64,000 nucleotides of DNA from Acidimicrobiia bacterium (GCA_009694375.1 SHVB01000001.1:70366-134365), one strand, 5' to 3'. Numbered from the stretch's first letter, positions 9,158-56,095 are shown. The notes: generated from the sequence alone by a model not told the origin. Program-made: numbers and translations.

Positions 9158-10189
9158 TCAGGGGGCAAGTGCCGCTTTCAGGTCCACCAGCACCGGGATG
9201 GGGCCCGGATCTACCCCGGCGGTGGCGGCCATATGCAGGCTGACAAAGTCGGCTTGGATGATGAGATCGAACAACTGGGCCAGTGCCCCCTCCCCCCGTG
9301 CGTTGATGTCTACGACGGCGTGCACGACCTCATCGATGATGTCGAAGGTGAGGTCGAAGCGACGGGCCACCTGCGGGTGCTCGAAATCGTGGCGGAACCG
9401 CACGACCGTCATGATCTGACGGGTGACATCACCGTGCTGACCCCACCCGCAAATCTCGTTGTGGCACATCTCTGGAAGACCGGCGGCAAACGCCGGGGCC
9501 TTGGCGTTCTCGTTCACCTGGCACTTGAAGCGATAGGCCGCCACGGCCCCCAGCGCATCGCCGCCGTAGGCCACCGGGATGGTGCGGCCGATCTCACGGG
9601 CGAGCTGCTGCGCCGGGCCCCCATCGGTAATCAGCTCGTCGCGGCGGCGAACAAGTTGGGTGACGGCATCGGCAACCTGCTGCGTGGCCCCCGGGAACAA
9701 CCCCATCCGTTCCAAGACAACCAGCGGCGGGATGCTCACCGCCCCAATCCCGGCGCGGGGCATGGGGATGTCGGGCAAGGCAATGGCGGGCGCACCCCAT
9801 TCGGCGGCGAGGGCGGCCAGAGGACCGCCGTGGGATAGCACCACCATGCGGGCACCAGCCTCGGCGGCGGCACGAGCCGCAGTGAGGGTTTCCTCGGTGG
9901 CCCCCGAGTAGGAAATGGCGAAGCACAACGTGCCCGGCCCCACGAACGCCGGGATCTCATGGCCCTTGACCACCGTGACGGGCACGGACAGGAACGGGCC
10001 CGCGATGGCTCTGAGCACATCCCCAGCGATACCACTGCCCCCCATGCCAAGCACCACCACGTTCTGAATTGTTTGGCAGCCCGGGAGACCAGTGACCTCC
10101 ACCGCCAACTCGGCGGCCTCGGCCACCTGATCTGGTAGCGCCGCCGCCAAGTCGAACATGCCGACGGAATCGAGAAGATCGCCGGTCAT
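9158..10189 (-). CDS. bifunctional phosphoglucose/phosphomannose isomerase (SIS domain)
   Basis: 343 aa with SIS motif VVVLGMGGSGIAGDV and a second SIS half. It lies in the mannose-activation neighbourhood next to phosphomannomutase. Confidence 0.8.
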   Translation of the reverse strand: MTGDLLDSVGMFDLAAALPDQVAEAAELAVEVTGLPGCQTIQNVVVLGMGGSGIAGDVLRAIAGPFLSVPVTVVKGHEIPAFVGPGTLCFAISYSGATEETLTAARAAAEAGARMVVLSHGGPLAALAAEWGAPAIALPDIPMPRAGIGAVSIPPLVVLERMGLFPGATQQVADAVTQLVRRRDELITDGGPAQQLAREIGRTIPVAYGGDALGAVAAYRFKCQVNENAKAPAFAAGLPEMCHNEICGWGQHGDVTRQIMTVVRFRHDFEHPQVARRFDLTFDIIDEVVHAVVDINARGEGALAQLFDLIIQADFVSLHMAATAGVDPGPIPVLVDLKAALAP

Positions 10190-10195
10190 CAGGGC

Positions 10196-10432
10196 CTACA
10201 CCTCGAAGGTGGGCCGGATGTTTTGGGCCTCCGCTTTGGCGAGGAGCCGATCGTGCTCGGCCTCGACCACCGTCTCCGCTTCGTCCACCAACATGATGGG
10301 GATGTCGTCTTTGATGGCGTACCTCCGCTGAAGCCGAGGGTTGTAGAGGGAGTCCTCGTCGGTGAAATAGAGCAACGGGCCCTTGTCGTCGGGGCAGGCG
10401 AGGATCTCGAGTAGTTGGGGGTCGAGGGCCAT
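10196..10432 (-). CDS. Trm112-family small protein
   Basis: 78 aa, LLEILACPDDKGPL...YAIKDDIPIMLVDEA, the typical Trm112p/UPF0434 signature. Confidence 0.8.
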   Translation of the reverse strand: MALDPQLLEILACPDDKGPLLYFTDEDSLYNPRLQRRYAIKDDIPIMLVDEAETVVEAEHDRLLAKAEAQNIRPTFEV

Positions 10433-10467
10433 GATGGATCTCCTTGGATGGGGCTAGGCGGGGTCGG

Positions 10468-11817
10468 TCAGTCGAACAGGGCCAGTACTTCGGCCACACG
10501 CACCGCACAGGATGCCTGATCGGGCGCCTCAAGGTTGAGTCGGAGGAGTGGCTCGGTGTTCGACGGGCGGAGGTTGAACCACCACGAGCCCTGATCCACG
10601 GTGAGGCCGTCGAGGTGATCTTGGTGATCGACGGGATAGTGGGCGGCGACGCGGGCGATCACGGCATGGGCATCGGCGACCACCGTATTGATCTCGCCGG
10701 AAGCGGCGTAGCGGTCGAATGGTTGGCGCAACTCCGAGAGGGGGACGCCCGCCTGAGCGAGTTGCTCCAGCACAACCAGCGCCGCGATGGACCCCGAATC
10801 GGCCCGGTAGTTGTCTCGGAAGTAATAGTGCGCCGAGTGCTCGCCCCCGAAGGCCGCCCCCGTCTCGGCCATCACCGACTTGATGAAGCTGTGCCCCACC
10901 CGGGTGCGCACCGGGATGCCGCCGCGCTCGCGCACCACCTCGGCCACCGCCTTGGAGCAGATGCAGTTGTGCAGGATCGTGGCACCGGGATTCTTCTCGA
11001 GCACACCGGCCGCCACGATGGCGGTGGTGAGCGAACCAGAGAGAGCCTGGCCCTGATCGTCCACGAGGAACACCCGGTCGGCGTCACCATCGAAGGCCAG
11101 GCCCACATCGGCGCCCACCTCGAGTACCCGGGCCTGCAGGTCGCGGAGGTTTTCGGGCTGGATGGGATCGGCGGGATGGTTGGGAAAGCGGCCGTCGAGT
11201 TCGCCGTAGATGATCTCCAGATCCATTGGGAGGCCCTCGAACACTGCGGGAACCACAAGGCCCCCCATGCCGTTGGCGGTGTCGGCCACGATTTTGAGCG
11301 GTCGTAACGCCGCCGTATCCACGAAGGACCGCACGTGATCGGCGAAGGCGCCAAGCAGGTCGAGCGACCGGTACCCGCCTCGCGGGCCGGCGGCTGGCGG
11401 CACCCCCGCCTCCACCATCGCCTTGATGTCCCCCAAGCCCGTGTCTTCGCCAATCGGGGCCGCGCCGGCCAAACACATTTTCATGCCGTTGTACTGGGCC
11501 GGGTTATGCGATGCCGTGAACATCACCGCGGGCGCATCAAGCGAGCCCGCCGCGAAATACACGAGGTCGGTAGAGGCCAGGCCCACATCCACGATATCGA
11601 GACCCTGCTCCTGCACTCCCAGGGCAAAGGCAGCCGCCAAGGCCACCCCCGAGTCGCGCATGTCGCGGCCCATGATGACCGTACGGGCCCCGCCGGGCCG
11701 GCTGCTCACAAAACAGGCAAAGGCCCCGCCAACGGCGTGAGCCAGGGTCGGGTCGAGTTGATCGGGGGTGATACCCCGAATGTCGTAGGCCTTGAAGATG
11801 ACATCGAGATCAGGCAT
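10468..11817 (-). CDS. manB: phosphomannomutase/phosphoglucomutase
   Basis: 449 aa with FKAYDIRG, active-site TASHNP, Mg-binding FDGDADR and the GEHSAHYYF sugar loop. Confidence 0.93.
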   Translation of the reverse strand: MPDLDVIFKAYDIRGITPDQLDPTLAHAVGGAFACFVSSRPGGARTVIMGRDMRDSGVALAAAFALGVQEQGLDIVDVGLASTDLVYFAAGSLDAPAVMFTASHNPAQYNGMKMCLAGAAPIGEDTGLGDIKAMVEAGVPPAAGPRGGYRSLDLLGAFADHVRSFVDTAALRPLKIVADTANGMGGLVVPAVFEGLPMDLEIIYGELDGRFPNHPADPIQPENLRDLQARVLEVGADVGLAFDGDADRVFLVDDQGQALSGSLTTAIVAAGVLEKNPGATILHNCICSKAVAEVVRERGGIPVRTRVGHSFIKSVMAETGAAFGGEHSAHYYFRDNYRADSGSIAALVVLEQLAQAGVPLSELRQPFDRYAASGEINTVVADAHAVIARVAAHYPVDHQDHLDGLTVDQGSWWFNLRPSNTEPLLRLNLEAPDQASCAVRVAEVLALFD

Positions 11818-11842
11818 GAAGGCTGCACCCTACCGGGGACCG

Positions 11843-13027
11843 TTAGGCCACGGAGGACTCCAGAACCCCCGATGGAAGCTCATAGACACCCGCAGCCGAC
11901 CACCGGCGAATGCGCCAGATGTCGCGAATGAGGCGGGCCGTGTCCCGGACGAGCTGCACGGTGGAGTGCTCCGGGCTCCCGAGATGCACCGGCACTTCGA
12001 TCAGCGAGAAGCCGAACCGTTCCACCAGGTGCAGTAGCTCGATGTCGAACGCGAAGCGGTCGACTCGGGCCACTGAGACGATGGTTTTGGCTACATCGGA
12101 CCGAAAGCCCTTGAGGCCACACTGCGTATCGTGGGGATGACTCAGCAGCACTCCCATCGCCAGTAGGTTCACCGCCCGACTGCCCACCCCCCGCAACCAA
12201 CCGGCACCGTCTTCGACCACCGTGTCGGGGTGTCGGCGGCTCCCCACCGCCACGTCCCATCCGGCCTCCACCTCCCGCAGCACGTTGCCAAGTTGGTCAG
12301 GCGAGTACGCCAGATCGGCATCGGTGAACGCGATTGCTCGGCCCCGCGCTACCGCCACGCCAGCACGAATGGCGGCCCCTTTGCCGCGATTTTCCGGAAG
12401 CACCAACACCTGATCGGCCCCGCCGACCAAGGCGGCATCGGCGGTACCATCCTGAGACCCATCGTCGACCACGATGATTTCCAGGCCGCCGTCAGCCCCG
12501 ATCGGGGCCAGCGCGGCACGGATGGCACCGATGGTGCCCCCGATGCGAGTCGCTTCCCCCAGGGCGGGGATGATGACCGTCGCCCGCATCTGCCCCGGGG
12601 CCGGGGGCCGGGGCACCTGCTGTTGGAGCGCCCGCCGCACCGCGCCGAGGAGCACCGCCCGATACAGGAATAGCCGCAGCAAGCCCGCCATGGACAGCGA
12701 CACCAACTTGGCCGCCACCAGACCGCCGGTGGTCTCGAAGCCATGGGCGGCGAAGAGCACCCGCAGGACCAGCACATCCAGGGTGCCCGCCAGCAACGCC
12801 ACCACCACGAACGCCGCCGGGAACCGCACCCAACGCACGTAAGGGTCAGACCGAAACGTGACCGATGAATGCAAGAGGTAGGAGAGCACCGAGGCCACCG
12901 CAATGGCGGTCGCGTTGGCCACCACCAGAATCCAGCCAAGTCCTTGACGGAAAAACACCAGCAAGCCGATGTCCACCAGCGTGGGCACTACGGCCAAGAG
13001 CAGGATGCGTCGCGGACGCTGCGTCAT
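11843..13027 (-). CDS. GtrA-like domain fused to a family-2 glycosyltransferase (polyprenyl-phosphate sugar synthase-like)
   Basis: The N-terminal 4-TM GtrA-like part (LVDIGLLVFFRQ..ANATAIAVASVLSYLLHSSVTFRS) is followed by a GT2 core (VIIPALGE..EIIVVDDGSQDGT..ENRGKGAA..TDADL). I chose the ATG at 13027 because the track ORF extension overlaps the upstream gene. Confidence 0.8.
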   Translation of the reverse strand: MTQRPRRILLLAVVPTLVDIGLLVFFRQGLGWILVVANATAIAVASVLSYLLHSSVTFRSDPYVRWVRFPAAFVVVALLAGTLDVLVLRVLFAAHGFETTGGLVAAKLVSLSMAGLLRLFLYRAVLLGAVRRALQQQVPRPPAPGQMRATVIIPALGEATRIGGTIGAIRAALAPIGADGGLEIIVVDDGSQDGTADAALVGGADQVLVLPENRGKGAAIRAGVAVARGRAIAFTDADLAYSPDQLGNVLREVEAGWDVAVGSRRHPDTVVEDGAGWLRGVGSRAVNLLAMGVLLSHPHDTQCGLKGFRSDVAKTIVSVARVDRFAFDIELLHLVERFGFSLIEVPVHLGSPEHSTVQLVRDTARLIRDIWRIRRWSAAGVYELPSGVLESSVA

Positions 13028-47444: not shown

Positions 47445-49202
47445 GTGCTTACCAAAGTCCTCATCGCCAATCGGGGCGAGATTGCTGTCCGAGTCATCCG
47501 CGCTTGCCAGGAAATGGGTATTGCCACGGTGGCGGTCTATTCCCAGTTAGATCGGGGGGCGCTCCACGTTCGCCTCGCCGATGAGGCTTACGCGCTGGGA
47601 GGCCAGACCGCCGCCGAGAGTTACCTCAATACGGCACGAATCCTCGAGGTAATCGAACAGTCCGGCGCCGATGGCGTGCATCCGGGTTACGGCTTCTTCT
47701 CCGAAAACACCGACTTCGCCCGGGCCATCACCGAACGCGGTGTGACCTTCATCGGTCCGCCGCCCGAGGCCATCGAAGTGATGGGCGACAAGGTCTCGAG
47801 CCGCATCGCTGCGCAGGCCGCCGGGGTGCAGGGCGTGCCCGGCACCACCGAGTTCCTCTCCTCCAGCGATGAGGTGGTGGCCTTCGGTACCGAGTTTGGG
47901 TGGCCGGTGGCCATCAAGGCGGCCTACGGCGGCGGCGGGCGCGGCATGCGCGTGGTGTTGAGCGCGTCCGAGGCCCACGATGCACTCGAGTCGGCCCAAT
48001 CGGAGGCCCTGAAAGGCTTTGGGCGCGACGAGTGCTACGTGGAGCGCTACCTCACCTGGCCGCGTCACGTCGAGATGCAAATCATCGGCGACACGCACGG
48101 CAACGTGGTGTGGATCGGCGAACGCGACTGCTCGGCCCAACGTCGCCACCAAAAACTGATCGAGGAAAGCCCGGCGCCGTCCTTCCCCCCCGAGACTCGT
48201 CAGGCCATGGGCGAAGCGGCGGTCAAGGTGGCCAAAGCCTGCGGCTATTACAACGCGGGCACTGTTGAGTTCCTCTTCCAAGACGGCGAGTTCTGGTTCC
48301 TCGAGATGAACACCCGCCTGCAGGTGGAACACCCCGTTACCGAGTTGGTGTCGGGAATCGACCTCGTGCGCGAGCAGATCCGGGTGGCGTCGGGTGAGCC
48401 CCTGTCCTTCACGCAGGACGACATCGACCTGCGGGGTTGGGCCATCGAGGTGCGGGTCAATGCCGAGAACCCCGCGGAAGGACGGTTCCTTCCCTCTCCC
48501 GGCACCATCACCGAACTCGTACCGCCGCAGGGCTTTGGGGTGCGCTGGGACGGTGGGTACGAAAGCGGCGACGAAGTGAGCCAGTACTACGACAACCTGG
48601 TGGGGAAACTAGTGGTGTGGGGCGACACGCGCGACACCGCCATCGACCGCATGATTCGCGCCCTCACGGAAATGCGCATCGAGGGAATCGCCACCACCAT
48701 TCCTGCCGACCTCGCCATCTTGCGCCACCCCGACTTCCGGGCCGCCGCGCACTCCACCAAGTGGGTGGAGGATCGCCTCGATCTCACCGGCATCACCTCC
48801 GGACCGACAGCGCCAGCGGTTGATCCCGACGAGGCCCCCAAGGTGCAACGAGATGTAGACGTGGAGATCAACGGCAAACGCTTCTCGGTGAAGATGTGGG
48901 TACCCGACGTCCCTATGGTGGCGGCCACGGCTTCGGCCGGCCCTCGCCACCGCCGAGCGGTCGCCAGTGGCAAAACGGCGGCCGCTGGCAGCGGAAACGT
49001 CTCCGCGCCGATGCAGGGCACCATTGTGAAGGTGCTCGTCGAGGTGGGCCAGACCGTGACCGTTGGTCAGTCTGTCTGCGTGCTGGAAGCCATGAAGATG
49101 GAAAACACCATCGCCGCTGACAAGGACGGAACCGTGGCGGAAATCAAGGTCGCCGCGGGCCAGTCGGTGGGGACCGGCGACATCGTGGTGGTTATCGACT
49201 GA
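47445..49202 (+). CDS. accA: acetyl/propionyl-CoA carboxylase alpha subunit (biotin carboxylase + BCCP)
   Basis: 585 aa with (M)LTKVLIANRGEIAVRVIRA, ATP-grasp motifs and a C-terminal biotinyl-lysine motif VLEAMKMEN. Confidence 0.95.
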   Translation: MLTKVLIANRGEIAVRVIRACQEMGIATVAVYSQLDRGALHVRLADEAYALGGQTAAESYLNTARILEVIEQSGADGVHPGYGFFSENTDFARAITERGVTFIGPPPEAIEVMGDKVSSRIAAQAAGVQGVPGTTEFLSSSDEVVAFGTEFGWPVAIKAAYGGGGRGMRVVLSASEAHDALESAQSEALKGFGRDECYVERYLTWPRHVEMQIIGDTHGNVVWIGERDCSAQRRHQKLIEESPAPSFPPETRQAMGEAAVKVAKACGYYNAGTVEFLFQDGEFWFLEMNTRLQVEHPVTELVSGIDLVREQIRVASGEPLSFTQDDIDLRGWAIEVRVNAENPAEGRFLPSPGTITELVPPQGFGVRWDGGYESGDEVSQYYDNLVGKLVVWGDTRDTAIDRMIRALTEMRIEGIATTIPADLAILRHPDFRAAAHSTKWVEDRLDLTGITSGPTAPAVDPDEAPKVQRDVDVEINGKRFSVKMWVPDVPMVAATASAGPRHRRAVASGKTAAAGSGNVSAPMQGTIVKVLVEVGQTVTVGQSVCVLEAMKMENTIAADKDGTVAEIKVAAGQSVGTGDIVVVID

Positions 49203-49725
49203 CGCCGGCGGTTCGCGCCACGCTCAGCGCCCGCGGTAGATCCACGAAGGCGGCGTACACCAGCACCAGCGCCAGCGCCGAGAGAGCCACGATGACCACG
49301 GCAACACCCGGGGCATCGATGAGGGCGTCGAGAGGCGGTGCCGAAGACCACCCCGCCATGGCCACCGCTACACCCGCCAGGAACACATCCAGCACCACGT
49401 GGATCGGATGCGGCGGTGTTTCATCGCGTCCGAAGCACCCGCAGGACCCAATCATCGTGCCGCTCCGCCGGGCGAGCACCACGAACGCCCCGAACGCCCC
49501 GTAACTCAGCCCCACCAACGACCACACCAGCGCCCCGCCCACCGTGATGGCCGCCAACCCGAGCACCAGTTCCGCTCCTGATCCCAGCCGCACCCACCCT
49601 GAGCGGGCCGGCAGCCCCAGGGCCCGCAAGGCCCCCACGGTCATGGTGGGATCAAGGAGCTTCTGGGCCCCAGCGAGGGCCAGCAATGCCGCGACGACCA
49701 GGGCGGGGGCGGTGAGCGCCGGCAT
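49192..49725 (-). CDS. MauE/DoxX-family redox-associated membrane protein
   Basis: 177 aa with 4 TM helices, GAQKLLDP near the N-terminus, and the SCGCFG motif (49429-49446) characteristic of MauE. Confidence 0.8.
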   Translation of the reverse strand: MPALTAPALVVAALLALAGAQKLLDPTMTVGALRALGLPARSGWVRLGSGAELVLGLAAITVGGALVWSLVGLSYGAFGAFVVLARRSGTMIGSCGCFGRDETPPHPIHVVLDVFLAGVAVAMAGWSSAPPLDALIDAPGVAVVIVALSALALVLVYAAFVDLPRALSVARTAGVSR

Positions 49726-49730
49726 GGGGC

Positions 49731-51089
49731 CTATTCCGACGCCTCGGCCAATGCTTCAGCCAGCGAGGGGTGCACCAGCAGACTGTCCACCAGATCCACG
49801 GCTCGCAGACCATTGGTGACTGCTACCGCCACTACCGCGATCAACTCGCCCGCGTGTCGGCCCACCACCGAGCCACCCAACACGATGCCCGTGGCGGGGT
49901 CGCTCACCAGTTTCACAAAACCCCGCGAATGACTTTCGATCAGGGCCTTGGGTGATGCCGAAAACGGCACCTTGGTGACCCGCACCTTCCGACCTTGCGC
50001 AAAGGCATCCGCCTCCGCCAAGCCAACATCGGCGATCTCAGGCACGGTGAAAATAGCCGTGGCCGCCTTGTCGTAGTCCAGTGTTCGGTGCAGGCCAGAG
50101 GGATAGCCCATCACCTTCTCGGCGATCCGGCGGCCCTGCATCGCGGCCACCGATGACAGCGGGAGTTTCCCCGACAGGTCACCGGCGGCATAGACGTGGG
50201 GCACGTTGGTGGCGCAGTTAGCGTCGATGGGCACGTACCCGCCCACTACGGTTACGCCCGCCGCCGCCAAGCCCAGTCCCTCGCTATTAGGTAGAGACCC
50301 GATGGCCATCAGGGCGTGGGATCCGCTTACCGCTCGGCCATCGTCACAACGCACCGTGAGCGTGTCGGTGTGCCGATCGATCCCCATCGCCCGTGCCCCC
50401 TTGAGCACGTTGACCCCCCGGGAGAGCAGTTCGTCTTCCAAGGCGGCCGCCACCTCGGGGTCTTTCCCCGGCAGCACCTGCTGTCGCGACGCAATCAGGG
50501 TCACCTCGCTCCCCAACGCCGAGAACATGTGGACGAACTCCACCCCTGTCACCCCCGACCCGATCACCACCAGGTGGGTGGGCCACTCCCGGGGCGGATA
50601 GGCGTGGCGCGTGGAGAGCACCCGATGGCCATCCACCTCAGCCCAGTCGGGCCGACGCGGACGGCTCCCGGTGGCGAGAAGAATGGCATCGGCTTCGAGT
50701 TCGATCCGCCCGTCGTCGGTAGTGGCCACCACCTGGTGCGGGCCCACCAAACAACCGTTTCCCCGCAGTATCCGCACGCCCTGGCTCTCGAGAAGCTGCC
50801 GGGTGTCGTGCTCGATTTTGGCGGAGATGCCCTCGATCCGTTGCCGGAGCGCCACGGCATCCACGCCAACCGGGCCCGGCGTGAGTGCCATTTCTGATGA
50901 CCGCCGCACCGCGGCCAGCGCCCCACCGGTGGCGATCATGGCCTTGGACGGAATGCAGTCCCAGAGGTGCGCCGCGCCCCCAATGATATCGCGCTCGATC
51001 ACGGTCACTTCCGCGCCGAAGCCGGCGGCACGGCTGGCCGCAGTGTTGCCGGCGGGCCCACCGCCGATGATCACGAACCTCACAGTCAT
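49731..51089 (-). CDS. lpdA: LpdA-type flavoprotein (NAD(P)H-quinone dehydrogenase-like pyridine nucleotide-disulfide oxidoreductase)
   Basis: MTVRFVIIGGGPAGN.. (FAD), a second GxGxxG (VVIGSGVTGVE), and a dimerisation domain. The redox centre reads GGAAHLWDCIPSK, with only one Cys where Lpd has CxxxxC. I chose the ATG at 51089. Confidence 0.85.
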   Translation of the reverse strand: MTVRFVIIGGGPAGNTAASRAAGFGAEVTVIERDIIGGAAHLWDCIPSKAMIATGGALAAVRRSSEMALTPGPVGVDAVALRQRIEGISAKIEHDTRQLLESQGVRILRGNGCLVGPHQVVATTDDGRIELEADAILLATGSRPRRPDWAEVDGHRVLSTRHAYPPREWPTHLVVIGSGVTGVEFVHMFSALGSEVTLIASRQQVLPGKDPEVAAALEDELLSRGVNVLKGARAMGIDRHTDTLTVRCDDGRAVSGSHALMAIGSLPNSEGLGLAAAGVTVVGGYVPIDANCATNVPHVYAAGDLSGKLPLSSVAAMQGRRIAEKVMGYPSGLHRTLDYDKAATAIFTVPEIADVGLAEADAFAQGRKVRVTKVPFSASPKALIESHSRGFVKLVSDPATGIVLGGSVVGRHAGELIAVVAVAVTNGLRAVDLVDSLLVHPSLAEALAEASE

Positions 51090-51170
51090 AGCCTGGACGC
51101 TACCGAATCGGCGCCTCTCCCCCGCCGCTAGCGCACCGAGCAGCCCCGATGGCTGCACTATCGTTGGGGC
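51090..51170. promoter_or_regulatory. divergent intergenic region between the lpdA-like gene and the TAT/Cys-rich gene
   Basis: 81 bp between opposed start codons. TATCGT (51159-51164, TANNNT-type -10) ends 6 nt before GTG 51171, which is compatible with a leaderless or very short leader. This rests on geometry only. Confidence 0.2.
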
Positions 51171-52502
51171 GTGGTCGCTTCCAATCTGCTAGCCCGAGCA
51201 ACCAATGCGGTGGCCCATCGCATTGACCGACGAAGTTTTCTGGCCCGCTCTGCCATGGCGGGAACGGCGCTGGTCACCGCCCCCGCCAACTTTCTCCTGC
51301 GCCCCCAGAGCGCCTACGCCGCCACCTGCAACTGCCAGGGCCAGGGATGCGCTTGCGGCTCCCTGTGCTGCGACGGCTACACCGAGTTCTGCTGCGCCAT
51401 CTACGGCACCAACACCTGCCCGAGCGGCTCGCTCACCGGCGGCTGGTGGAAGGCCGACGGGTCATCGTTTTGTGGGGGCGCCGCCCGCTACTACATGGAC
51501 TGCCACAAGCCCTGCGGCTTTTGCAGCTGCGGCGGCTCGGGGGTGTGCAGCGGCGCCTGCAACGGAAGCCCGTGCGGTTGTGCAAAGGGCCGCTGTGACC
51601 ACCGCAAGGCTGGTTGCACCTCGTTCCGATACGGCAACTGCAACAACGCCACCGCCTGCATCGGTCCGATCCTGTGCCGAGTGGTTACCTGTACCGAGCC
51701 CTGGAAGATCGAACCCACGTGCTCCAGCGCCGCCGTGCGAACCGACAACAACACGGCGAACCACAACCGGCCATGCCTCCAAACAGCACCGCCCATCTAT
51801 CCAGTGGCGGGCAACTGGGACGGAATCGGCAAATCCGGCATCGGCTTCTACGACAACCTCACCCACCTCTGGACAATCCGCCAGTCGGCCAATCTCGGTC
51901 CCGTGGCCCCCTTCGCCTACGGCCTCCAACCCGGTGATCGGCCCGTCGTAGGCGACTGGAACGGTGACGGGACAACCGGCGTAGGAATCTTCCGCAACGC
52001 CGTGTGGCACCTGTCGAATCAGATCAACCCCGCCTCTACCTTCCTGGTCAGTGCCCCCTACGGGCAGCAGTCCGGCGACATGCCGGTGGCGGGAGATTGG
52101 AACGGTGACGGCACCGACTCGCCCGGCATCTTCCGCCGCGGTGGCTATTGGCACCTCAGCGACAATCTGGCCTCCCCCTCGACGGTGCGCGTGGTGCGCT
52201 ACGGCCTCGCGGTCGGCGACCTACCCGTGGTGGGCGACTGGAACAATGACGGCATCGACGGCATCGGTATTTTTCGCAGCGGCATGTGGCATCTCAACAA
52301 CACCCTTGCACCCTCCTCCACTGCCCGGCTTATCCCCTTCGGACAGCGCGGCGACATACCGGTGGTGGGTGATTGGCACGCTCTCGGCCAGGTGAGCCTG
52401 GGCGTGTACCGACCGTCAGAGGGAACATGGTATTTACGCCGATCACTGACCGACGCGTCGGTGATCACCGTCAAGTTTGGACAACGATGGCTACTCGGCT
52501 GA
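51171..52502 (+). CDS. TAT-exported protein: 26-Cys MauA (methylamine dehydrogenase light chain)-like domain fused to five FG-GAP/VCBS-type repeats
   Basis: 443 aa. The twin-arginine signal is DRRSFLARSAMAGTALVTAPANFLLRPQSAYA|AT. Residues 51-202 contain 26 Cys, including CPSGSLTGGWWKADGSSFCGGAARYYMDCHKPCG. These are followed by 5 repeats of P-V-x-G-D-W-N-G-D-G..G-I-F-R..W-H-L. Confidence 0.75.
   Translation: MVASNLLARATNAVAHRIDRRSFLARSAMAGTALVTAPANFLLRPQSAYAATCNCQGQGCACGSLCCDGYTEFCCAIYGTNTCPSGSLTGGWWKADGSSFCGGAARYYMDCHKPCGFCSCGGSGVCSGACNGSPCGCAKGRCDHRKAGCTSFRYGNCNNATACIGPILCRVVTCTEPWKIEPTCSSAAVRTDNNTANHNRPCLQTAPPIYPVAGNWDGIGKSGIGFYDNLTHLWTIRQSANLGPVAPFAYGLQPGDRPVVGDWNGDGTTGVGIFRNAVWHLSNQINPASTFLVSAPYGQQSGDMPVAGDWNGDGTDSPGIFRRGGYWHLSDNLASPSTVRVVRYGLAVGDLPVVGDWNNDGIDGIGIFRSGMWHLNNTLAPSSTARLIPFGQRGDIPVVGDWHALGQVSLGVYRPSEGTWYLRRSLTDASVITVKFGQRWLLG
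51798..52499 (+). repeat. five tandem ~46-aa FG-GAP/VCBS-like coding repeats
   Basis: The repeats begin YPVAGNWDGIGKSGIGFY.. / RPVVGDWNGDGTTGVGIFR.. / MPVAGDWNGDGTDSPGIFR.. / LPVVGDWNNDGIDGIGIFR.. / IPVVGDWHALGQVSLGVYR.., with a period of about 138-141 nt. Confidence 0.85.
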
Positions 52503-52512
52503 TGGCGACTTG

Positions 52513-53325
52513 ATGGCTGCTCTCGTCGTGGCCTTGGCGATGGTGGTGGCTCTCCTCGGCGTGCTCGTGATTGGCCTTCTCCGCTCCCATGCCGAGATCC
52601 TGCGGGCCTTGCATGATCTCGGGGTGAACCTCGAGGATGGCGTCGCCGCACCTGCCGCGCCGCTCCGGAGCCCCGCCGTATCAAATCGAGCGCCGATGCG
52701 CACGAGCGACGGGGTACCTCGACCCCGTGATGAGAACGCGCCCATGGGCGACGCCGTGGACCTGACCGGTGAACTTCCGCTCGGGGGGGCCGCCCGGGTG
52801 GCGGTCACTGGAGTGGGCCACGCCACCCTGTTGGCGTTCCTTTCGTCGGGTTGCGGCACCTGCGGAGTGTTCTGGGAAGCCCTCGCCACTCCCGGAGGCC
52901 CCGAACTACCCGGCCCAGACACGCGGGTAGTGATCGTGACCAACGGTCCTGAGGTCGAATCAGCCGCCGCGGTGGCCGACCTCGCCCCGACCGCTATCGT
53001 CACGATCATGACCAGCGCCGCCTGGGACGACTATCGCGTCCCGGTGTCGCCCTATTTCTTGCTGGTCGACGGACCTTCAGGGACGGTGGTGGGCGAAGGA
53101 TCCGGAACCTCCTGGGACCAGGTACGCGACCTCCTCGGTCGGGCTATCGCCGATGCAGGACTGGCGCGGAGCGACGACCACAGCCGCCTCGCCCGCATGG
53201 GCGGCCAGGACCGCGCCGATTGGGTAGATAGCGAGATGCAGGCGGCTGGCATCGAGCCGGGCCACCCCAGCCTCTACCCAGAACCCCACCCCTCTCATCT
53301 CGGAACCGATGACACCACCCCATGA
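52513..53325 (+). CDS. MauD-like membrane-anchored thioredoxin-fold protein (CGTC)
   Basis: N-terminal TM MAALVVALAMVVALLGVLVIGLL, then RSHAEILRALHDLG. The Trx core is LLAFLSSGCGTCGVFW (Cys codons at 52852 and 52861) with VPVSPYFLLVD, followed by about 70 aa of acidic/His tail. I chose the ATG at 52513; the track ORF starts at 52477. Confidence 0.75.
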   Translation: MAALVVALAMVVALLGVLVIGLLRSHAEILRALHDLGVNLEDGVAAPAAPLRSPAVSNRAPMRTSDGVPRPRDENAPMGDAVDLTGELPLGGAARVAVTGVGHATLLAFLSSGCGTCGVFWEALATPGGPELPGPDTRVVIVTNGPEVESAAAVADLAPTAIVTIMTSAAWDDYRVPVSPYFLLVDGPSGTVVGEGSGTSWDQVRDLLGRAIADAGLARSDDHSRLARMGGQDRADWVDSEMQAAGIEPGHPSLYPEPHPSHLGTDDTTP

Positions 53326-53816
53326 GCCGGCTCGCCGACTCCGGGATCTCCATCGATCTACCCCACCGATGGGACGGACAGATTCGCGCCGCGGGCCGCG
53401 ACTTCACCTCCCGCTCCACCACCACCCTGGCGCCGCTCGATGCCACCCCCACCGTGGGATCGGTCCTCCATGCCAGCAGTTTCGCCCTGCCCGCCGAGCG
53501 AGGCGACTACGGCTCTGGAGCCGTTGAGTCGATGGGGGGATCAGACATTCTCATCTGCCTCCTCGAACATGAACCCGAGGCCGCCGCCACCGCCCTGTTC
53601 CGCCGTGAGGGTTTGCCGAGTGTCGGCGTGGCCGATTTCTCGCCGGAGAGCATGCAACGGGCCATGCCCGGCATGTCTGGGTTTCAAAGGTTCTTCCAGG
53701 TGGCGGGGCGGCCGTTCTGCCTCTACGTCGTGGTGGGCCACCATGTCACCCGGGGTCCCCTCGTGCGCTCGGCCCACGCCGTCGTGCAAACGATATCCAT
53801 CGTCCCAAAATCATGA
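53322..53816 (+). CDS. hypothetical protein (no signal peptide, no recognisable family)
   Basis: 164 aa with ATGA overlaps to both neighbours (53322-53325 and 53813-53816). G/C third-position bias is like the flanking genes. Confidence 0.6.
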   Translation: MSRLADSGISIDLPHRWDGQIRAAGRDFTSRSTTTLAPLDATPTVGSVLHASSFALPAERGDYGSGAVESMGGSDILICLLEHEPEAAATALFRREGLPSVGVADFSPESMQRAMPGMSGFQRFFQVAGRPFCLYVVVGHHVTRGPLVRSAHAVVQTISIVPKS

Positions 53817-56095
53817 ACTCTTCTCCCCGTTGGCGCGGCGTTGCCTTACTCGTCTTGCTGGCGACCCTTCCCGTTGTCCGCTCGACGGCCAGGGCATCGG
53901 CGGCCGAGCCGAGGATCAACGTGGTCCCCACCGGCACCACCACCGTGATTCCCGATGCCGGCTGGAGTTGGTTCTCCGACGAGCGGGCGCAGTTCTCCAG
54001 CGACGGCACGACGCTCTATACCGGCGCAGTGGCCAGCCGTTATGCCCAACGACTCCCGCCGGGAACCTCGATGGTCGGCGAGTTCACCCTCGCCACCGGG
54101 GCCCGCCGGCTCGTGGGCTTGGGGGTGGCCGAGAGCGATGACCACGACAACCCCTCGATTTATTCGGCGCCCAACGGAGAAGTGACCACCGCTTGGTCTC
54201 GTCACAACCGGGACGGCCTGATCCACCAGCAACGCCGCCGCACCGATGGGTCGTGGCTGCTGCTTCCTTCCATTCCAGCCGGGGGAAACACCACCTACAG
54301 CCGGTTGGTGTCGAGTACCGGAGCGGCCGGTGAAGCGGTGCTCTACAACTTTTATCGGGGCGATCGATTCGATACGTCGGCCCTGGTATCCACCGATGTC
54401 GGACGCAGTTGGGCAGACATCGGACCCATACTGCGCGACCCAACCGACCTCATCAATGGCCGCCCGTACGTGCAGTATGCGGCCGATGGACATGGCCGTG
54501 TCGACCTCATCGCCACGGCAACCCACCCCCGGGACGAGCAGACATCCATCTACCACGGCTACATCAAAACCGGGCAGGTCTACCGGTCCGACGGAACGTT
54601 ACTCGGACCCCTCGGTGCCACCCTTCCGGTGACCGCACTTACCCGAGTGTGGTCTCCTCCCGGCAGTGAACGGGCCTGGGTGGCAGCGATTCAAGACGAC
54701 CCGATCACCGGACAACCAACGATTGTCTTCTCGGTGCGCCACTCCGTGACTGATCATCGCTACTGGTACGGCTCCTGGGATGGCACGACCTGGCAGACCG
54801 CCGAAGTGGCTTACGCCGGCACGGCGCTCACCGCTGAGGAGGAGGACTACACGGGGCTAGCGGCGCTGGATCCAGCCGACCCTACGCACCTGGTCATCTC
54901 GACCAACGCCGATCCGGTTACCGGCGCTCCCCTGGTTTCGGTAGCGGATCAGCAACGCCACTGGGAGCTGTGGGAGGGCCGTCAAGCCGGAGGGATCTGG
55001 ACATGGACGGCGCTCACTCGCGATTCCACGACCGATAACCTACGCCCGGTGCTGGCCGCCTTGAACGGTGCGCACGCGCTGTTATGGATGCGGGGGTCCT
55101 ACCCCGGGTACACGACCTACGACACCGACATCGTGGGGGTGATTTCCACTCCTGAGGGGACGACCGTGGGTGCGGGAGCGGCCAGGGTGGCCACCAGCGT
55201 GCCGGTGCTCCCCACTCCCGCACCGAGCACCGAGCGAGGCACGCCGGTGGTGGGTCAATTCGACGGCCACCCGGCTGACGACCTCCTGATGATCCATCCC
55301 GGTGCCGTTTCGGAGTCCCTTTTTCTCGGCGATGAGCAGCACCACCCGAGCGCGATCGCAGCCCCATCGGTCACGGGCACCTACACGCCCATCGCCGGCG
55401 ACTATGACGGCAACGACACCACCGACATCTACTTCTACGCCCCTGGTCCCGCCACCGACTACCTCTGGCTCGCTTCGGGAGTAGGCCGGTTTACCTCGGT
55501 GCCGGTTCGCCAGGTGTTCGGCGTCTACACGCCCATCCCCGGCGACTTCGACTGCGATGGCACCACCGACATCTACTTCTACGCCCCGGGTGCGGCCACC
55601 GACAGTCTGTGGATCGCAAAGAGCTCGGCGTTCACACCCCTCGCAACTCGCCAAGTGTTCGGCACCTACACGCCCGTCCGGGGTGATCAAGACGGGGACG
55701 GATGCGACGATATTTTCTTCTACGGTGCCGGGTCCACACCCGAGTCGCGCTGGCGTGGCGGGCCCGGTGCCATTTTCCGCGTCACCGAGACCCGACAGGT
55801 ACTCGGTTCCTACCTCCCGGTCAGTGGCGACTACAACGGCGACGGCCGCACCGACATCCTCTTCTACGCCCCTGGTGTGAGCAGTGACTACCTCTGGCTC
55901 GCGTCCGAGACAGGAACTTTCGTCGACGCTCCCATTCGCCAGATCTACGGTCAATTTTCGCCGGTCGCCGGGGACTTCGATGGCAACGGAGGCGACGACG
56001 TGCACTTCTACAACCCTGGGTCCCCGGCTGATCCTCTGTGGCTGTCCGGCAATCTTCCCCTCGCCAATTTCACGACCGCGATCAACAACCTCTAG
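53813..56095 (+). CDS. Sec-exported protein: BNR/sialidase-like beta-propeller (BNR_4-like) plus six FG-GAP-type repeats
   Basis: 760 aa. The signal is MNSSPRWRGVALLVLLATLPVVRSTARASA|AEP. It has an Asp-box STDVGRSW, ESDDHDNPSIY and LLWMRGSYPGYTTYDTDI (BNR_4-like, recalled from memory). The C-terminal 284 aa are repeats with GDYDGNDTTDIYFYAPG-type DxDxDG loops. Confidence 0.7.
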   Translation: MNSSPRWRGVALLVLLATLPVVRSTARASAAEPRINVVPTGTTTVIPDAGWSWFSDERAQFSSDGTTLYTGAVASRYAQRLPPGTSMVGEFTLATGARRLVGLGVAESDDHDNPSIYSAPNGEVTTAWSRHNRDGLIHQQRRRTDGSWLLLPSIPAGGNTTYSRLVSSTGAAGEAVLYNFYRGDRFDTSALVSTDVGRSWADIGPILRDPTDLINGRPYVQYAADGHGRVDLIATATHPRDEQTSIYHGYIKTGQVYRSDGTLLGPLGATLPVTALTRVWSPPGSERAWVAAIQDDPITGQPTIVFSVRHSVTDHRYWYGSWDGTTWQTAEVAYAGTALTAEEEDYTGLAALDPADPTHLVISTNADPVTGAPLVSVADQQRHWELWEGRQAGGIWTWTALTRDSTTDNLRPVLAALNGAHALLWMRGSYPGYTTYDTDIVGVISTPEGTTVGAGAARVATSVPVLPTPAPSTERGTPVVGQFDGHPADDLLMIHPGAVSESLFLGDEQHHPSAIAAPSVTGTYTPIAGDYDGNDTTDIYFYAPGPATDYLWLASGVGRFTSVPVRQVFGVYTPIPGDFDCDGTTDIYFYAPGAATDSLWIAKSSAFTPLATRQVFGTYTPVRGDQDGDGCDDIFFYGAGSTPESRWRGGPGAIFRVTETRQVLGSYLPVSGDYNGDGRTDILFYAPGVSSDYLWLASETGTFVDAPIRQIYGQFSPVAGDFDGNGGDDVHFYNPGSPADPLWLSGNLPLANFTTAINNL
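55241..56092 (+). repeat. six tandem 47-48-aa FG-GAP-like coding repeats with DNA-level identity
   Basis: accaccgacatctacttctacgcccc occurs at 55418 and again at 55562 (144 nt apart). A close variant, caccgacatcctcttctacgcccctggt, occurs near 55849. Protein repeats carry GDYDGNDTTDIYFYAPG / GDFDCDGTTDIYFYAPG / GDQDGDGCDDIFFYGAG / GDYNGDGRTDILFYAPG / GDFDGNGGDDVHFYNPG. Confidence 0.9.

Follow-up and report, generated by a model that had tools for sequence, protein, structure and literature searches.

Which protein is served by accessory genes of the mau type, known from clusters for methylamine dehydrogenase (MADH), in a locus that has no gene for the heavy chain of this enzyme? The question is raised by a stretch of DNA from an Acidimicrobiia bacterium (GCA_009694375.1, SHVB01000001.1:70366-134365; 64,000 nucleotides (nt) in length, hereafter “the window”, in which positions are counted). 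In its region 49192-56095, genes for a MauE-like and a MauD-like protein flank the gene for a 443-amino-acid (aa), cysteine-rich protein with a twin-arginine translocation (TAT) signal. According to the original prediction, made from this DNA alone, the mau-type accessory genes serve a secreted or surface-located Cys-rich protein and not an amine dehydrogenase. This proposal is supported by the linkage of the mauE-like and mauD-like genes and of a third gene, X, to the Cys-rich gene in related genomes, by translational fusions of MauE to the Cys-rich protein, by the presence of a MauF homologue in relatives, and by the lack of mauB, mauG and amicyanin genes. We regard the window as holding the form that a cassette conserved in Acidimicrobiia takes in Microthrix; this cassette is probably—with a probability of roughly 0.6—dedicated to the oxidative folding of a single substrate, an exported cell-surface protein.

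A Conserved Cassette in Acidimicrobiia

The Cys-rich domain of the 443-aa protein is present in at least 564 species genomes of the GTDB; 80 loci, 50 of these with full flanks, were examined. All 80 genomes belong to the Acidimicrobiia or to unclassified Actinomycetota. Neighbour families were defined by jackhmmer on the open reading frames (ORFs) of the 80 loci and are designated E (mauE-like), CYS (Cys-rich), D (mauD-like), F (DsbD_2-like MauF homologue) and X (the gene for a 164-aa protein). Among the 50 full loci, E is found in 47, D and X in 48 each, F in 37, and a flavoprotein gene in seven. E, D and X all flank the Cys-rich gene in 47 of these 50; the neighbourhood noticed by the original prediction in a single genome is, thus, conserved among relatives. 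The usual gene order is E-CYS-D-F-X, with the mauE-like gene in most relatives located directly 5' of the Cys-rich gene and co-oriented with it, and it is permuted in some lineages. The cultured Salinilacustrithrix flava EGI L10123 (NZ_CP133888; L034) carries the cassette in full, as E-CYS-D-F(Sec)-X. The window and its three closest relatives (loci L002-L004) display a derived arrangement, with E inverted behind an inserted flavoprotein gene.

The association of MauE with the Cys-rich protein extends to the level of single polypeptides. In some metagenome-assembled genomes (MAGs), a translational fusion places MauE N-terminal to the Cys-rich protein (P0108, encoded at L082:3661-5535; P0111; P0372). 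These fusions keep the RR-type leader as an internal segment and contain a fifth hydrophobic helix after the MauE domain. Another MauE fusion, in L088, seems riddled with frameshifts and was left out of the evidence.

The original prediction had also listed mauB, mauG, the amicyanin gene and mauF as missing from the window; this is confirmed, and mauJ was likewise not found. The set of mauB, mauG and amicyanin genes, by which an ordinary mau locus would be recognised, was not found around the Cys-rich gene in the 80 related loci, nor was mauJ, save for one marginal propeller match. This match (L021:2056-3345, minus strand; E 1.2e-4), the sole one to the MauB profile in the 80 loci, lies ~6.5 kb upstream of the cassette and is probably a generic beta-propeller.

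Two Microthrixaceae loci (L032 and L057, at ~9700-12400) encode longer relatives of the Cys-rich protein, with ORFs of 597 and 848 aa (stop to stop) and without E, D, F or X nearby. These lone relatives may be paralogues that a cassette at another genomic site serves in trans.

The Cys-Rich Protein, a Proposed Substrate

Two features that the original prediction had read from the 443-aa protein hold, namely the TAT leader, which scores above the cut-off of TIGR01409 (21.6 bits; cut-off 16.7), and the count of 26 Cys, all of which are located within residues 53-202. In the Cys-rich family, RR.F of the leader is at least 90% conserved, and most of 147 divergent family members have the RR motif. 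Each of the 26 Cys is at least 94% conserved, and exactly 26 Cys are present in 65 of 80 sequences; many divergent members, the LGFP subgroup included, contain 16-24. Invariant motifs of the domain are G-W-W, RYY.DC, FRYG.C and TDN.T..H. In domain numbering, the invariant positions other than Cys comprise G-W-W, R-Y-Y-x-D, F-R-Y-G, R126, D148, T151 and H154, with D24 being invariant only within a 20-sequence alignment. These residues suggest a functional surface, not a scaffold alone.

The AlphaFold2 model of the Cys-rich N-terminal domain (N-domain) has a predicted local distance difference test score (pLDDT) of 84.8 and a predicted template modelling score (pTM) of 0.80. Foldseek searches with this model gave no match better than E=7 in the PDB and E=3.9 in the BFVD, and neither Pfam nor NCBIfam contains a match to the domain at E<=10. 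Sequence and profile searches of the PDB with the full Cys-rich protein, the family profile and an N-domain-only profile gave only chance matches to Cys-rich chains (e.g., AMA1 at E ~0.2). The Cys-rich head domain is without a detectable relative of known structure. The protein has thousands of metagenomic relatives, none of which is named; among 1.84 billion representatives, 473 clusters at 50% identity belong to the N-domain family.

In the C-terminal module, five FG-GAP repeats had been predicted. Five GDW/NWDG-type repeats are indeed visible, but the match to Pfam FG-GAP_3 is weak (E 0.0025; 18.8 bits) and stays under the cut-off of 26.9; on some Cys-rich homologues, PF13517 annotation is precomputed. 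Across divergent members, the N-domain remains N-terminal behind a TAT-type leader and the C-terminal part is variable, with LGFP repeats (28 of 91) or CWB2, SLH, FG-GAP, DUF4214, ricin or tectonin modules; P0440 (L087:7001-8563) is one of these members. In a divergent LGFP-type member, the full cassette, E-D-F-X-CYS, is retained. The variable modules are mostly wall- or carbohydrate-binding, which suggests attachment of the protein to the cell wall or to glycans and, because of this, display of the head domain on the cell surface.

MauE- and MauD-Like Proteins

The polytopic 177-aa membrane protein with its SCGCFG motif had been taken for a MauE, and the expected match to the Pfam MauE family PF07291 was obtained at E 1.1e-11 (45.5 bits; cut-off 27) over residues 5-123. 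The MauE signature—CXC and then F-G in the loop preceding transmembrane (TM) helix 4, together with Lys in TM1 and Glu in TM2—is present, and C95-G-C97-F-G at 49435-49443 constitutes the putative active site. In a comparison of the window protein with four genuine MauE proteins and 70 homologues from cassettes (75 sequences), K22, E52 and C95-G-C97-F98-G99 show 93-100% conservation. The window thus encodes a true member of the MauE family.

For this family, a function has recently been described. MauE substitutes for DsbB in Escherichia coli, for which the CXC motif is required, with the F-G after CXC and the Lys/Glu pair being conserved (Gonzalez et al., bioRxiv 2026, 10.64898/2026.03.05.709764). 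K22, E52 and CGC-FG of the 177-aa protein coincide with the residues to which this work assigns a function. Most MauE genes are found in genomes without mauA; MauE is seen as a generalist disulfide generator and is proposed to act via a thioredoxin-fold partner such as MauD (10.64898/2026.03.05.709764). Earlier work cited in the same preprint holds that MauE may be a reductase.

A partner of this kind is encoded downstream of the Cys-rich gene. The MauD-like protein, whose start at 52513 is backed by homologue alignment, comprises an N-terminal TM helix and the motifs GCGTCG and VSPYF. C114-G-T-C117 is encoded at 52852-52863 and P180 is the candidate cis-Pro; C114, C117 and P180 are invariant in 44 sequences of the family. 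The profile made of these 44 sequences was compared with four genuine MauD proteins from real mau loci and aligns over 184 columns (hhalign probability 96.7%; E 3.6e-10). The alignment covers CxxC and cis-Pro as well as the TM helix and the juxtamembrane segment, which substantiates the likeness of the TM-anchored CGTC protein to MauD, juxtamembrane segment included, that the original prediction had noted. At a common database size, the family hidden Markov model (HMM) finds MauD at E 4.8e-6 to 3.7e-3 versus 0.035 for the best thioredoxin-fold chain of the PDB. The MauD equivalog model TIGR02661, which recognises genuine Paracoccus MauD with 364 bits, does not match the MauD-like protein at E<=0.1. 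The redoxin/AhpC-TSA match that had been expected did not materialise, as neither Pfam nor NCBIfam gave a match even at E<=10. Because the profile HMM favours MauD over the thioredoxin folds of the PDB, while TIGR02661 is unmatched, the 270-aa CGTC protein is, as judged from its profile, a distant MauD homologue and not an equivalog.

A MauF Homologue with Candidate Selenocysteine

In most relatives, the cassette includes F, the gene for a DsbD_2/CcdA-like membrane protein whose first helix contains a conserved Cys or selenocysteine (Sec). The protein is a homologue of MauF (hhalign 99.2%; E 3.6e-19), with the STWSPCG motif common to both, and Paracoccus MauF matches directly by tblastn in 38 loci. 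No MauF homologue was found in the whole window, and it is also missing in L003 and L004, the contigs of which cover that stretch; going by this distribution, Microthrix has lost F.

In 39 loci, the gene for the MauF homologue contains an in-frame TGA, never TAA or TAG, at the position of the conserved Cys in 13 others (RSTWSP-U/C-G), and the frame 5' of the TGA encodes the first TM helix. Examples from the related loci are L034:12060-12125 (TGA at 12066), L011:11973, L087:6013 and L082:6421. An invariant 6-bp hairpin resembling a selenocysteine insertion sequence (SECIS), GAUGCU-N4-AGCAUC, is located 11 nt after the U of UGA and is not present in the Cys forms. A second hairpin displays compensatory changes, from GC to CG in four sequences and from CG to UA in five. 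Furthermore, selD, selB and selA adjoin the cassette in L044, L059, L069 and L087. Gene callers cut the MauF homologue short at the UGA; no model of NCBIfam covers it, and a 2026 selenoproteome review has no Mau-type entry. On the basis of these genomic features, the Sec-type MauF homologue is a candidate new selenoprotein family. Because Sec and Cys alternate at this position, the conserved MauF Cys is predicted to be redox-active, and the alternation provides direct evolutionary evidence for a redox-catalytic residue.

Protein X

The fifth member of the cassette, X, has no signal peptide and no TM helix, and contains an invariant RGDYGSGAV loop (motif RGDYGSGAVE). It is without a match in Pfam or NCBIfam, even at E<=10, or among PDB sequences, and no counterpart was found among all ORFs of four true mau loci. 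The AlphaFold2 model of X (pLDDT 90.4) gave only weak Foldseek matches (E >=0.037; TM-score <=0.55), among which the alpha-beta sandwiches MTC28, LpqN, PsbP, Tsi3 and EagT6 recur. A protein-binding or chaperone role of X would be a guess.

Comparison with the Methylamine Dehydrogenase Light Chain

The original prediction went further and recognised in the Cys-rich domain the core of MauA, the MADH light chain. This resemblance was not upheld by the searches, for which the Paracoccus light chain (identical to PDB 1mg2_B) and ~115 family members served as the MauA reference. The MauA family PF02975 gives no match to the Cys-rich domain even at E<=10, no light chain of MADH or AADH is matched among PDB chains by the Cys-rich family profiles, and the N-domain HMM matched none of the ~115 MauA sequences at E<=100. 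The structural comparison with the MADH light chain that had been proposed ended likewise: Foldseek of the N-domain model against the PDB, at the pLDDT given above, retrieved no MADH or AADH chain.

Profile-profile alignment by hhalign, run against single MauA and against a 115-sequence MauA profile, was weak in both cases (for the profile, score 20.4, probability 3%, P=0.015). The local alignment is collinear, pairing CDG with IDG (Asp32), CC, CPxGT, W93 with Trp57, and YxDC with YRD76C. However, reversed MauA reaches 20.3, and 14 of 300 column shuffles reach 20.4 (shuffle mean 14.0; standard deviation (sd) 3.1). W93 alone is alignable to Trp57, in an alignment that is not significant. A Trp108 equivalent is not recognisable in the Cys-rich domain, in line with the earlier remark that the context of the second tryptophan of tryptophan tryptophylquinone (TTQ) cannot be made out. 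The twin-arginine leader, which is common to MauA and the Cys-rich protein, is a shared but non-specific feature. At the level of sequence, the resemblance to MauA appears to be one of composition; it is unsupported rather than strictly disproved.

Proposed Role and Alternative Explanations

From the family memberships, the gene linkage, the fusions and the motif conservation, all of which are observed, we infer the following direction of electron flow. MauE, a membrane protein of four to five helices with CGC as its active site, would make disulfides and deliver the electrons to the quinone pool, and it would oxidise the membrane-anchored MauD-like thioredoxin (CGTC). The MauD-like protein would, in turn, introduce or shuffle disulfides in the Cys-rich domain after its export, where the 26 Cys could form up to 13 disulfides. 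The MauF homologue of most relatives would probably act as an opposing reducing or isomerising arm, and X would be a cytoplasmic fifth conserved partner, possibly a pre-export chaperone.

Several points weigh against this scheme. TAT normally carries folded proteins, so the Cys residues could bind metals in the cytoplasm, and MauE, a described generalist, might serve further substrates. Since the N-terminus of the MauD-like protein is without positive charge, its outward orientation rests on analogy with MauD. The fold assignment of X is weak, and Microthrix is without F, so that F would be dispensable or replaced there.

If MauE is a generalist, the MauE-like and MauD-like proteins could constitute general extracytoplasmic disulfide machinery, with the Cys-rich protein as one abundant client encoded next door. 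Such a relationship fits the complementation of dsbB by MauE and its generalist occurrence in many genomes without mauA (10.64898/2026.03.05.709764), as well as the arrangement in Microthrix, where mauE is divergent from the substrate gene and accompanied by a quinone-reductase-like flavoprotein gene. We consider it unlikely, though still deserving attention, given the extremely tight linkage (47 of 50 loci across a class despite permutations of gene order), the translational MauE-substrate fusions, and the fact that the cassette tracks the N-domain even when the C-terminal module is swapped. The export route raises another alternative, according to which the Cys-rich domain binds a metal or cluster that is loaded in the cytoplasm, and leaves the cell folded via TAT, while the MauE-, MauD- and MauF-like proteins keep selected thiols reduced or carry out metal or redox repair in the extracellular space. 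The conserved TAT signal would then imply folded or cofactor-loaded export and cytoplasmic X could be the loading chaperone; F belongs to the DsbD/CcdA-like, reductant-importing family, often with Sec, and the earlier report, known via the preprint, of MauE as a possible reductase points the same way. Yet Pfam and NCBIfam yielded no metal-site or cluster motif, the activity of MauE that has been tested is oxidative, and MauA, from established knowledge of MADH, is also TAT-exported but disulfide-bonded. With the number of Cys, moreover, being even (26) and conserved throughout, as for disulfide pairs, a metal-binding domain seems distinctly doubtful.

The Cys-rich domain might, finally, be a diverged MauA that may carry a tryptophan-derived quinone, the cassette being a stripped-down mau system. 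The collinear local alignment, the invariant GWW motif, the export by TAT and high Cys content of both proteins, and the presence of three mau accessory genes (the homologues of MauE, MauD and MauF) around the Cys-rich gene would agree with this descent. It is very improbable in view of an hhalign score that reversed MauA and 14 of 300 shuffles match, of the missing matches to PF02975, MauA sequences, PDB profiles and MADH structures, of the unrecognisable Trp108 counterpart, and of a heavy chain and MauG that were found neither in the window nor in the 80 loci. As far as homology can be detected, a MauA origin appears already largely refuted. A long shot is also the idea that a new extracellular domain, redox-active or catalytic, has its active site in the invariant GWW / RYY.DC / FRYG.C core, possibly with a protein-derived cofactor on W92/W93; descended from or convergent on the MADH light chain, such a domain would have no heavy chain or MauG and would be matured by MauE, MauD, (Sec)MauF and X.

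Gene Layout and Lineage-Specific Neighbours

The region 49192-56095 comprises six genes, two on the minus strand and then four divergent ones on the plus strand (Table 1). The host is Microthrix-like; among the genomes of the species collection, a Candidatus Microthrix parvicella MAG comes nearest, with 97% protein identity over the Cys-rich domain. The features lie where the original prediction had placed them, but the 475-aa flavoprotein gene between the mauE-like and the Cys-rich genes had gone unmentioned. The ATGA-coupled genes that it described are evident from the ORF coordinates, with overlapping junctions at 53322 and 53813. At the other end of the region, the mauE-like gene converges with an accC-like gene (47445-49202, plus strand), the 3' ends of the two sharing 11 bases.

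Table 1. Features of the locus, with positions counted in the 64,000-nt window.
Feature	Position	Strand	Remarks
MauE-family membrane protein	49192..49725	minus	177 aa; Pfam PF07291 above cut-off
Flavoprotein, pyridine nucleotide-disulfide oxidoreductase family	49731..51089	minus	Pyr_redox_2; longest ORF to 51158 (475 aa)
Twin-arginine signal peptide of the Cys-rich protein	51171..51320	plus	Residues 1-50, DRRSFLA ... AYA|A; TIGR01409
Cys-rich N-terminal domain	51321..51785	plus	Residues 51-205; 26 conserved Cys
Five FG-GAP/VCBS-like repeats (GDWNGDG...W.L), C-terminal module of the Cys-rich protein	51786..52502	plus	Read from sequence; stop codon 52500-52502
MauD-like membrane-anchored thioredoxin-fold protein	52513..53325	plus	270 aa; profile-profile homology to MauD
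Protein X	53322..53816	plus	164 aa; cassette-conserved
Secreted BNR_4 + FG-GAP_3 protein	53813..56095	plus	760 aa; Pfam

The likely start of the flavoprotein gene is the ATG at 51089, and the gene ends 5 bp from the co-oriented mauE-like gene. Its product matches Pyr_redox_2 at E 2.5e-59, with NAD(P)H-quinone dehydrogenase as the best NCBIfam model (434.6 bits; cut-off 479). In the usual CxxxxC redox motif, a single Cys is left (HLWDCIPSK), the first redox Cys being gone. The position of the gene varies among the seven full loci that have it near the cassette, and of the six loci that contain accC and birA, five also have the flavoprotein gene, which suggests shared synteny. The proximity of a quinone-reductase-like flavoprotein to the quinone-dependent MauE is suggestive. 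A role as a LodB/GoxB-like maturation enzyme, or as a core member of the cassette, was considered; membership in the core was rejected on account of the presence in only 7 of 50 loci, the missing first redox Cys and the synteny with accC and birA.

The BNR/FG-GAP protein (Pfam BNR_4 at E 2e-10; FG-GAP_3 at E 6.4e-17) shares its repeat type with the C-terminus of the Cys-rich protein. The original prediction had counted its gene as part of the module; as it occurs in 1 of the 80 related loci, it was ruled out as a core gene and is a recent, Microthrix-specific addition. An FkbM gene, also present in 1 of 80 loci, was ruled out in the same way.

Significance and Relation to Known Systems

MauE has only recently been proposed as a third major disulfide-generating enzyme of bacteria. 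The cassette represents a natural system outside methylotrophy that ties homologues of MauE, MauD and MauF to a single substrate, by which their division of labour becomes testable. The substrate itself is a confidently modelled candidate fold with 13 possible disulfides and no match to a solved structure, borne on varied wall-binding modules. The host class is a widespread and poorly studied actinobacterial one, which includes the sludge-bulking Microthrix. No description of the cassette, of the substrate family or of X was found in the searchable literature. The statement of the original prediction that no characterised example is known has to be qualified: generalist MauE (10.64898/2026.03.05.709764) and mauE/mauD homologues of Streptomyces beside Cys-rich precursors (PMC7794033) have already been reported.

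The closest known system is the mau cluster of Paracoccus denitrificans and Methylobacterium extorquens, with which the cassette shares a MauE with a CGC-type motif, a TM-anchored CxxC protein of the MauD kind and, in relatives of the window, a MauF with STWSPCG, all beside a TAT-exported Cys-rich protein. The cassette loci differ in that they are without heavy chain, MauG, amicyanin, MauJ, MauM and MauN. Their substrate is not detectably related to MauA, has about twice the number of Cys (26 versus 12) and carries a C-terminal wall-binding or propeller module. Furthermore, protein X comes in addition, the divergence of D puts it beyond the reach of the MauD equivalog model, and the lineage is Acidimicrobiia and not Proteobacteria.

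The generalist MauE of the preprint (10.64898/2026.03.05.709764) corresponds to the one described here in the CXC-F-G loop, the Lys and Glu residues, the proposed thioredoxin-fold partner and the occurrence outside mau clusters. A substrate-linked cassette is not part of that description, whereas in Acidimicrobiia MauE is linked genetically, along with D, F and X, to one substrate family, to which it is in some cases fused. Candidate clusters for peptides that are made by the ribosome and modified after translation (RiPPs) in Streptomyces contain mauE/mauD homologues beside precursors with at least 8 Cys (decRiPPter, 2020, PMC7794033). These clusters are alike in that an orphan mauE, with or without mauD, stands beside a Cys-rich product in Actinomycetota, with the rest of the mau cluster missing, and a product-modifying role has been proposed (PMC7794033). 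In contrast, their predicted precursors are small, while the substrates of the cassette are TAT-exported multidomain proteins of 440-700 aa, and the cassette additionally includes MauF-like and X genes.

In functional terms, the proposed scheme resembles the DsbB/DsbA, VKOR/MdbA and DsbD/CcdA systems, with a membrane oxidase that is linked to quinone, a carrier of the thioredoxin fold and a reductant conduit in the membrane for isomerisation. The membrane components of these systems belong to unrelated families, and, in contrast to their housekeeping role, the Acidimicrobiia cassette is operon-linked and would be dedicated to one substrate.

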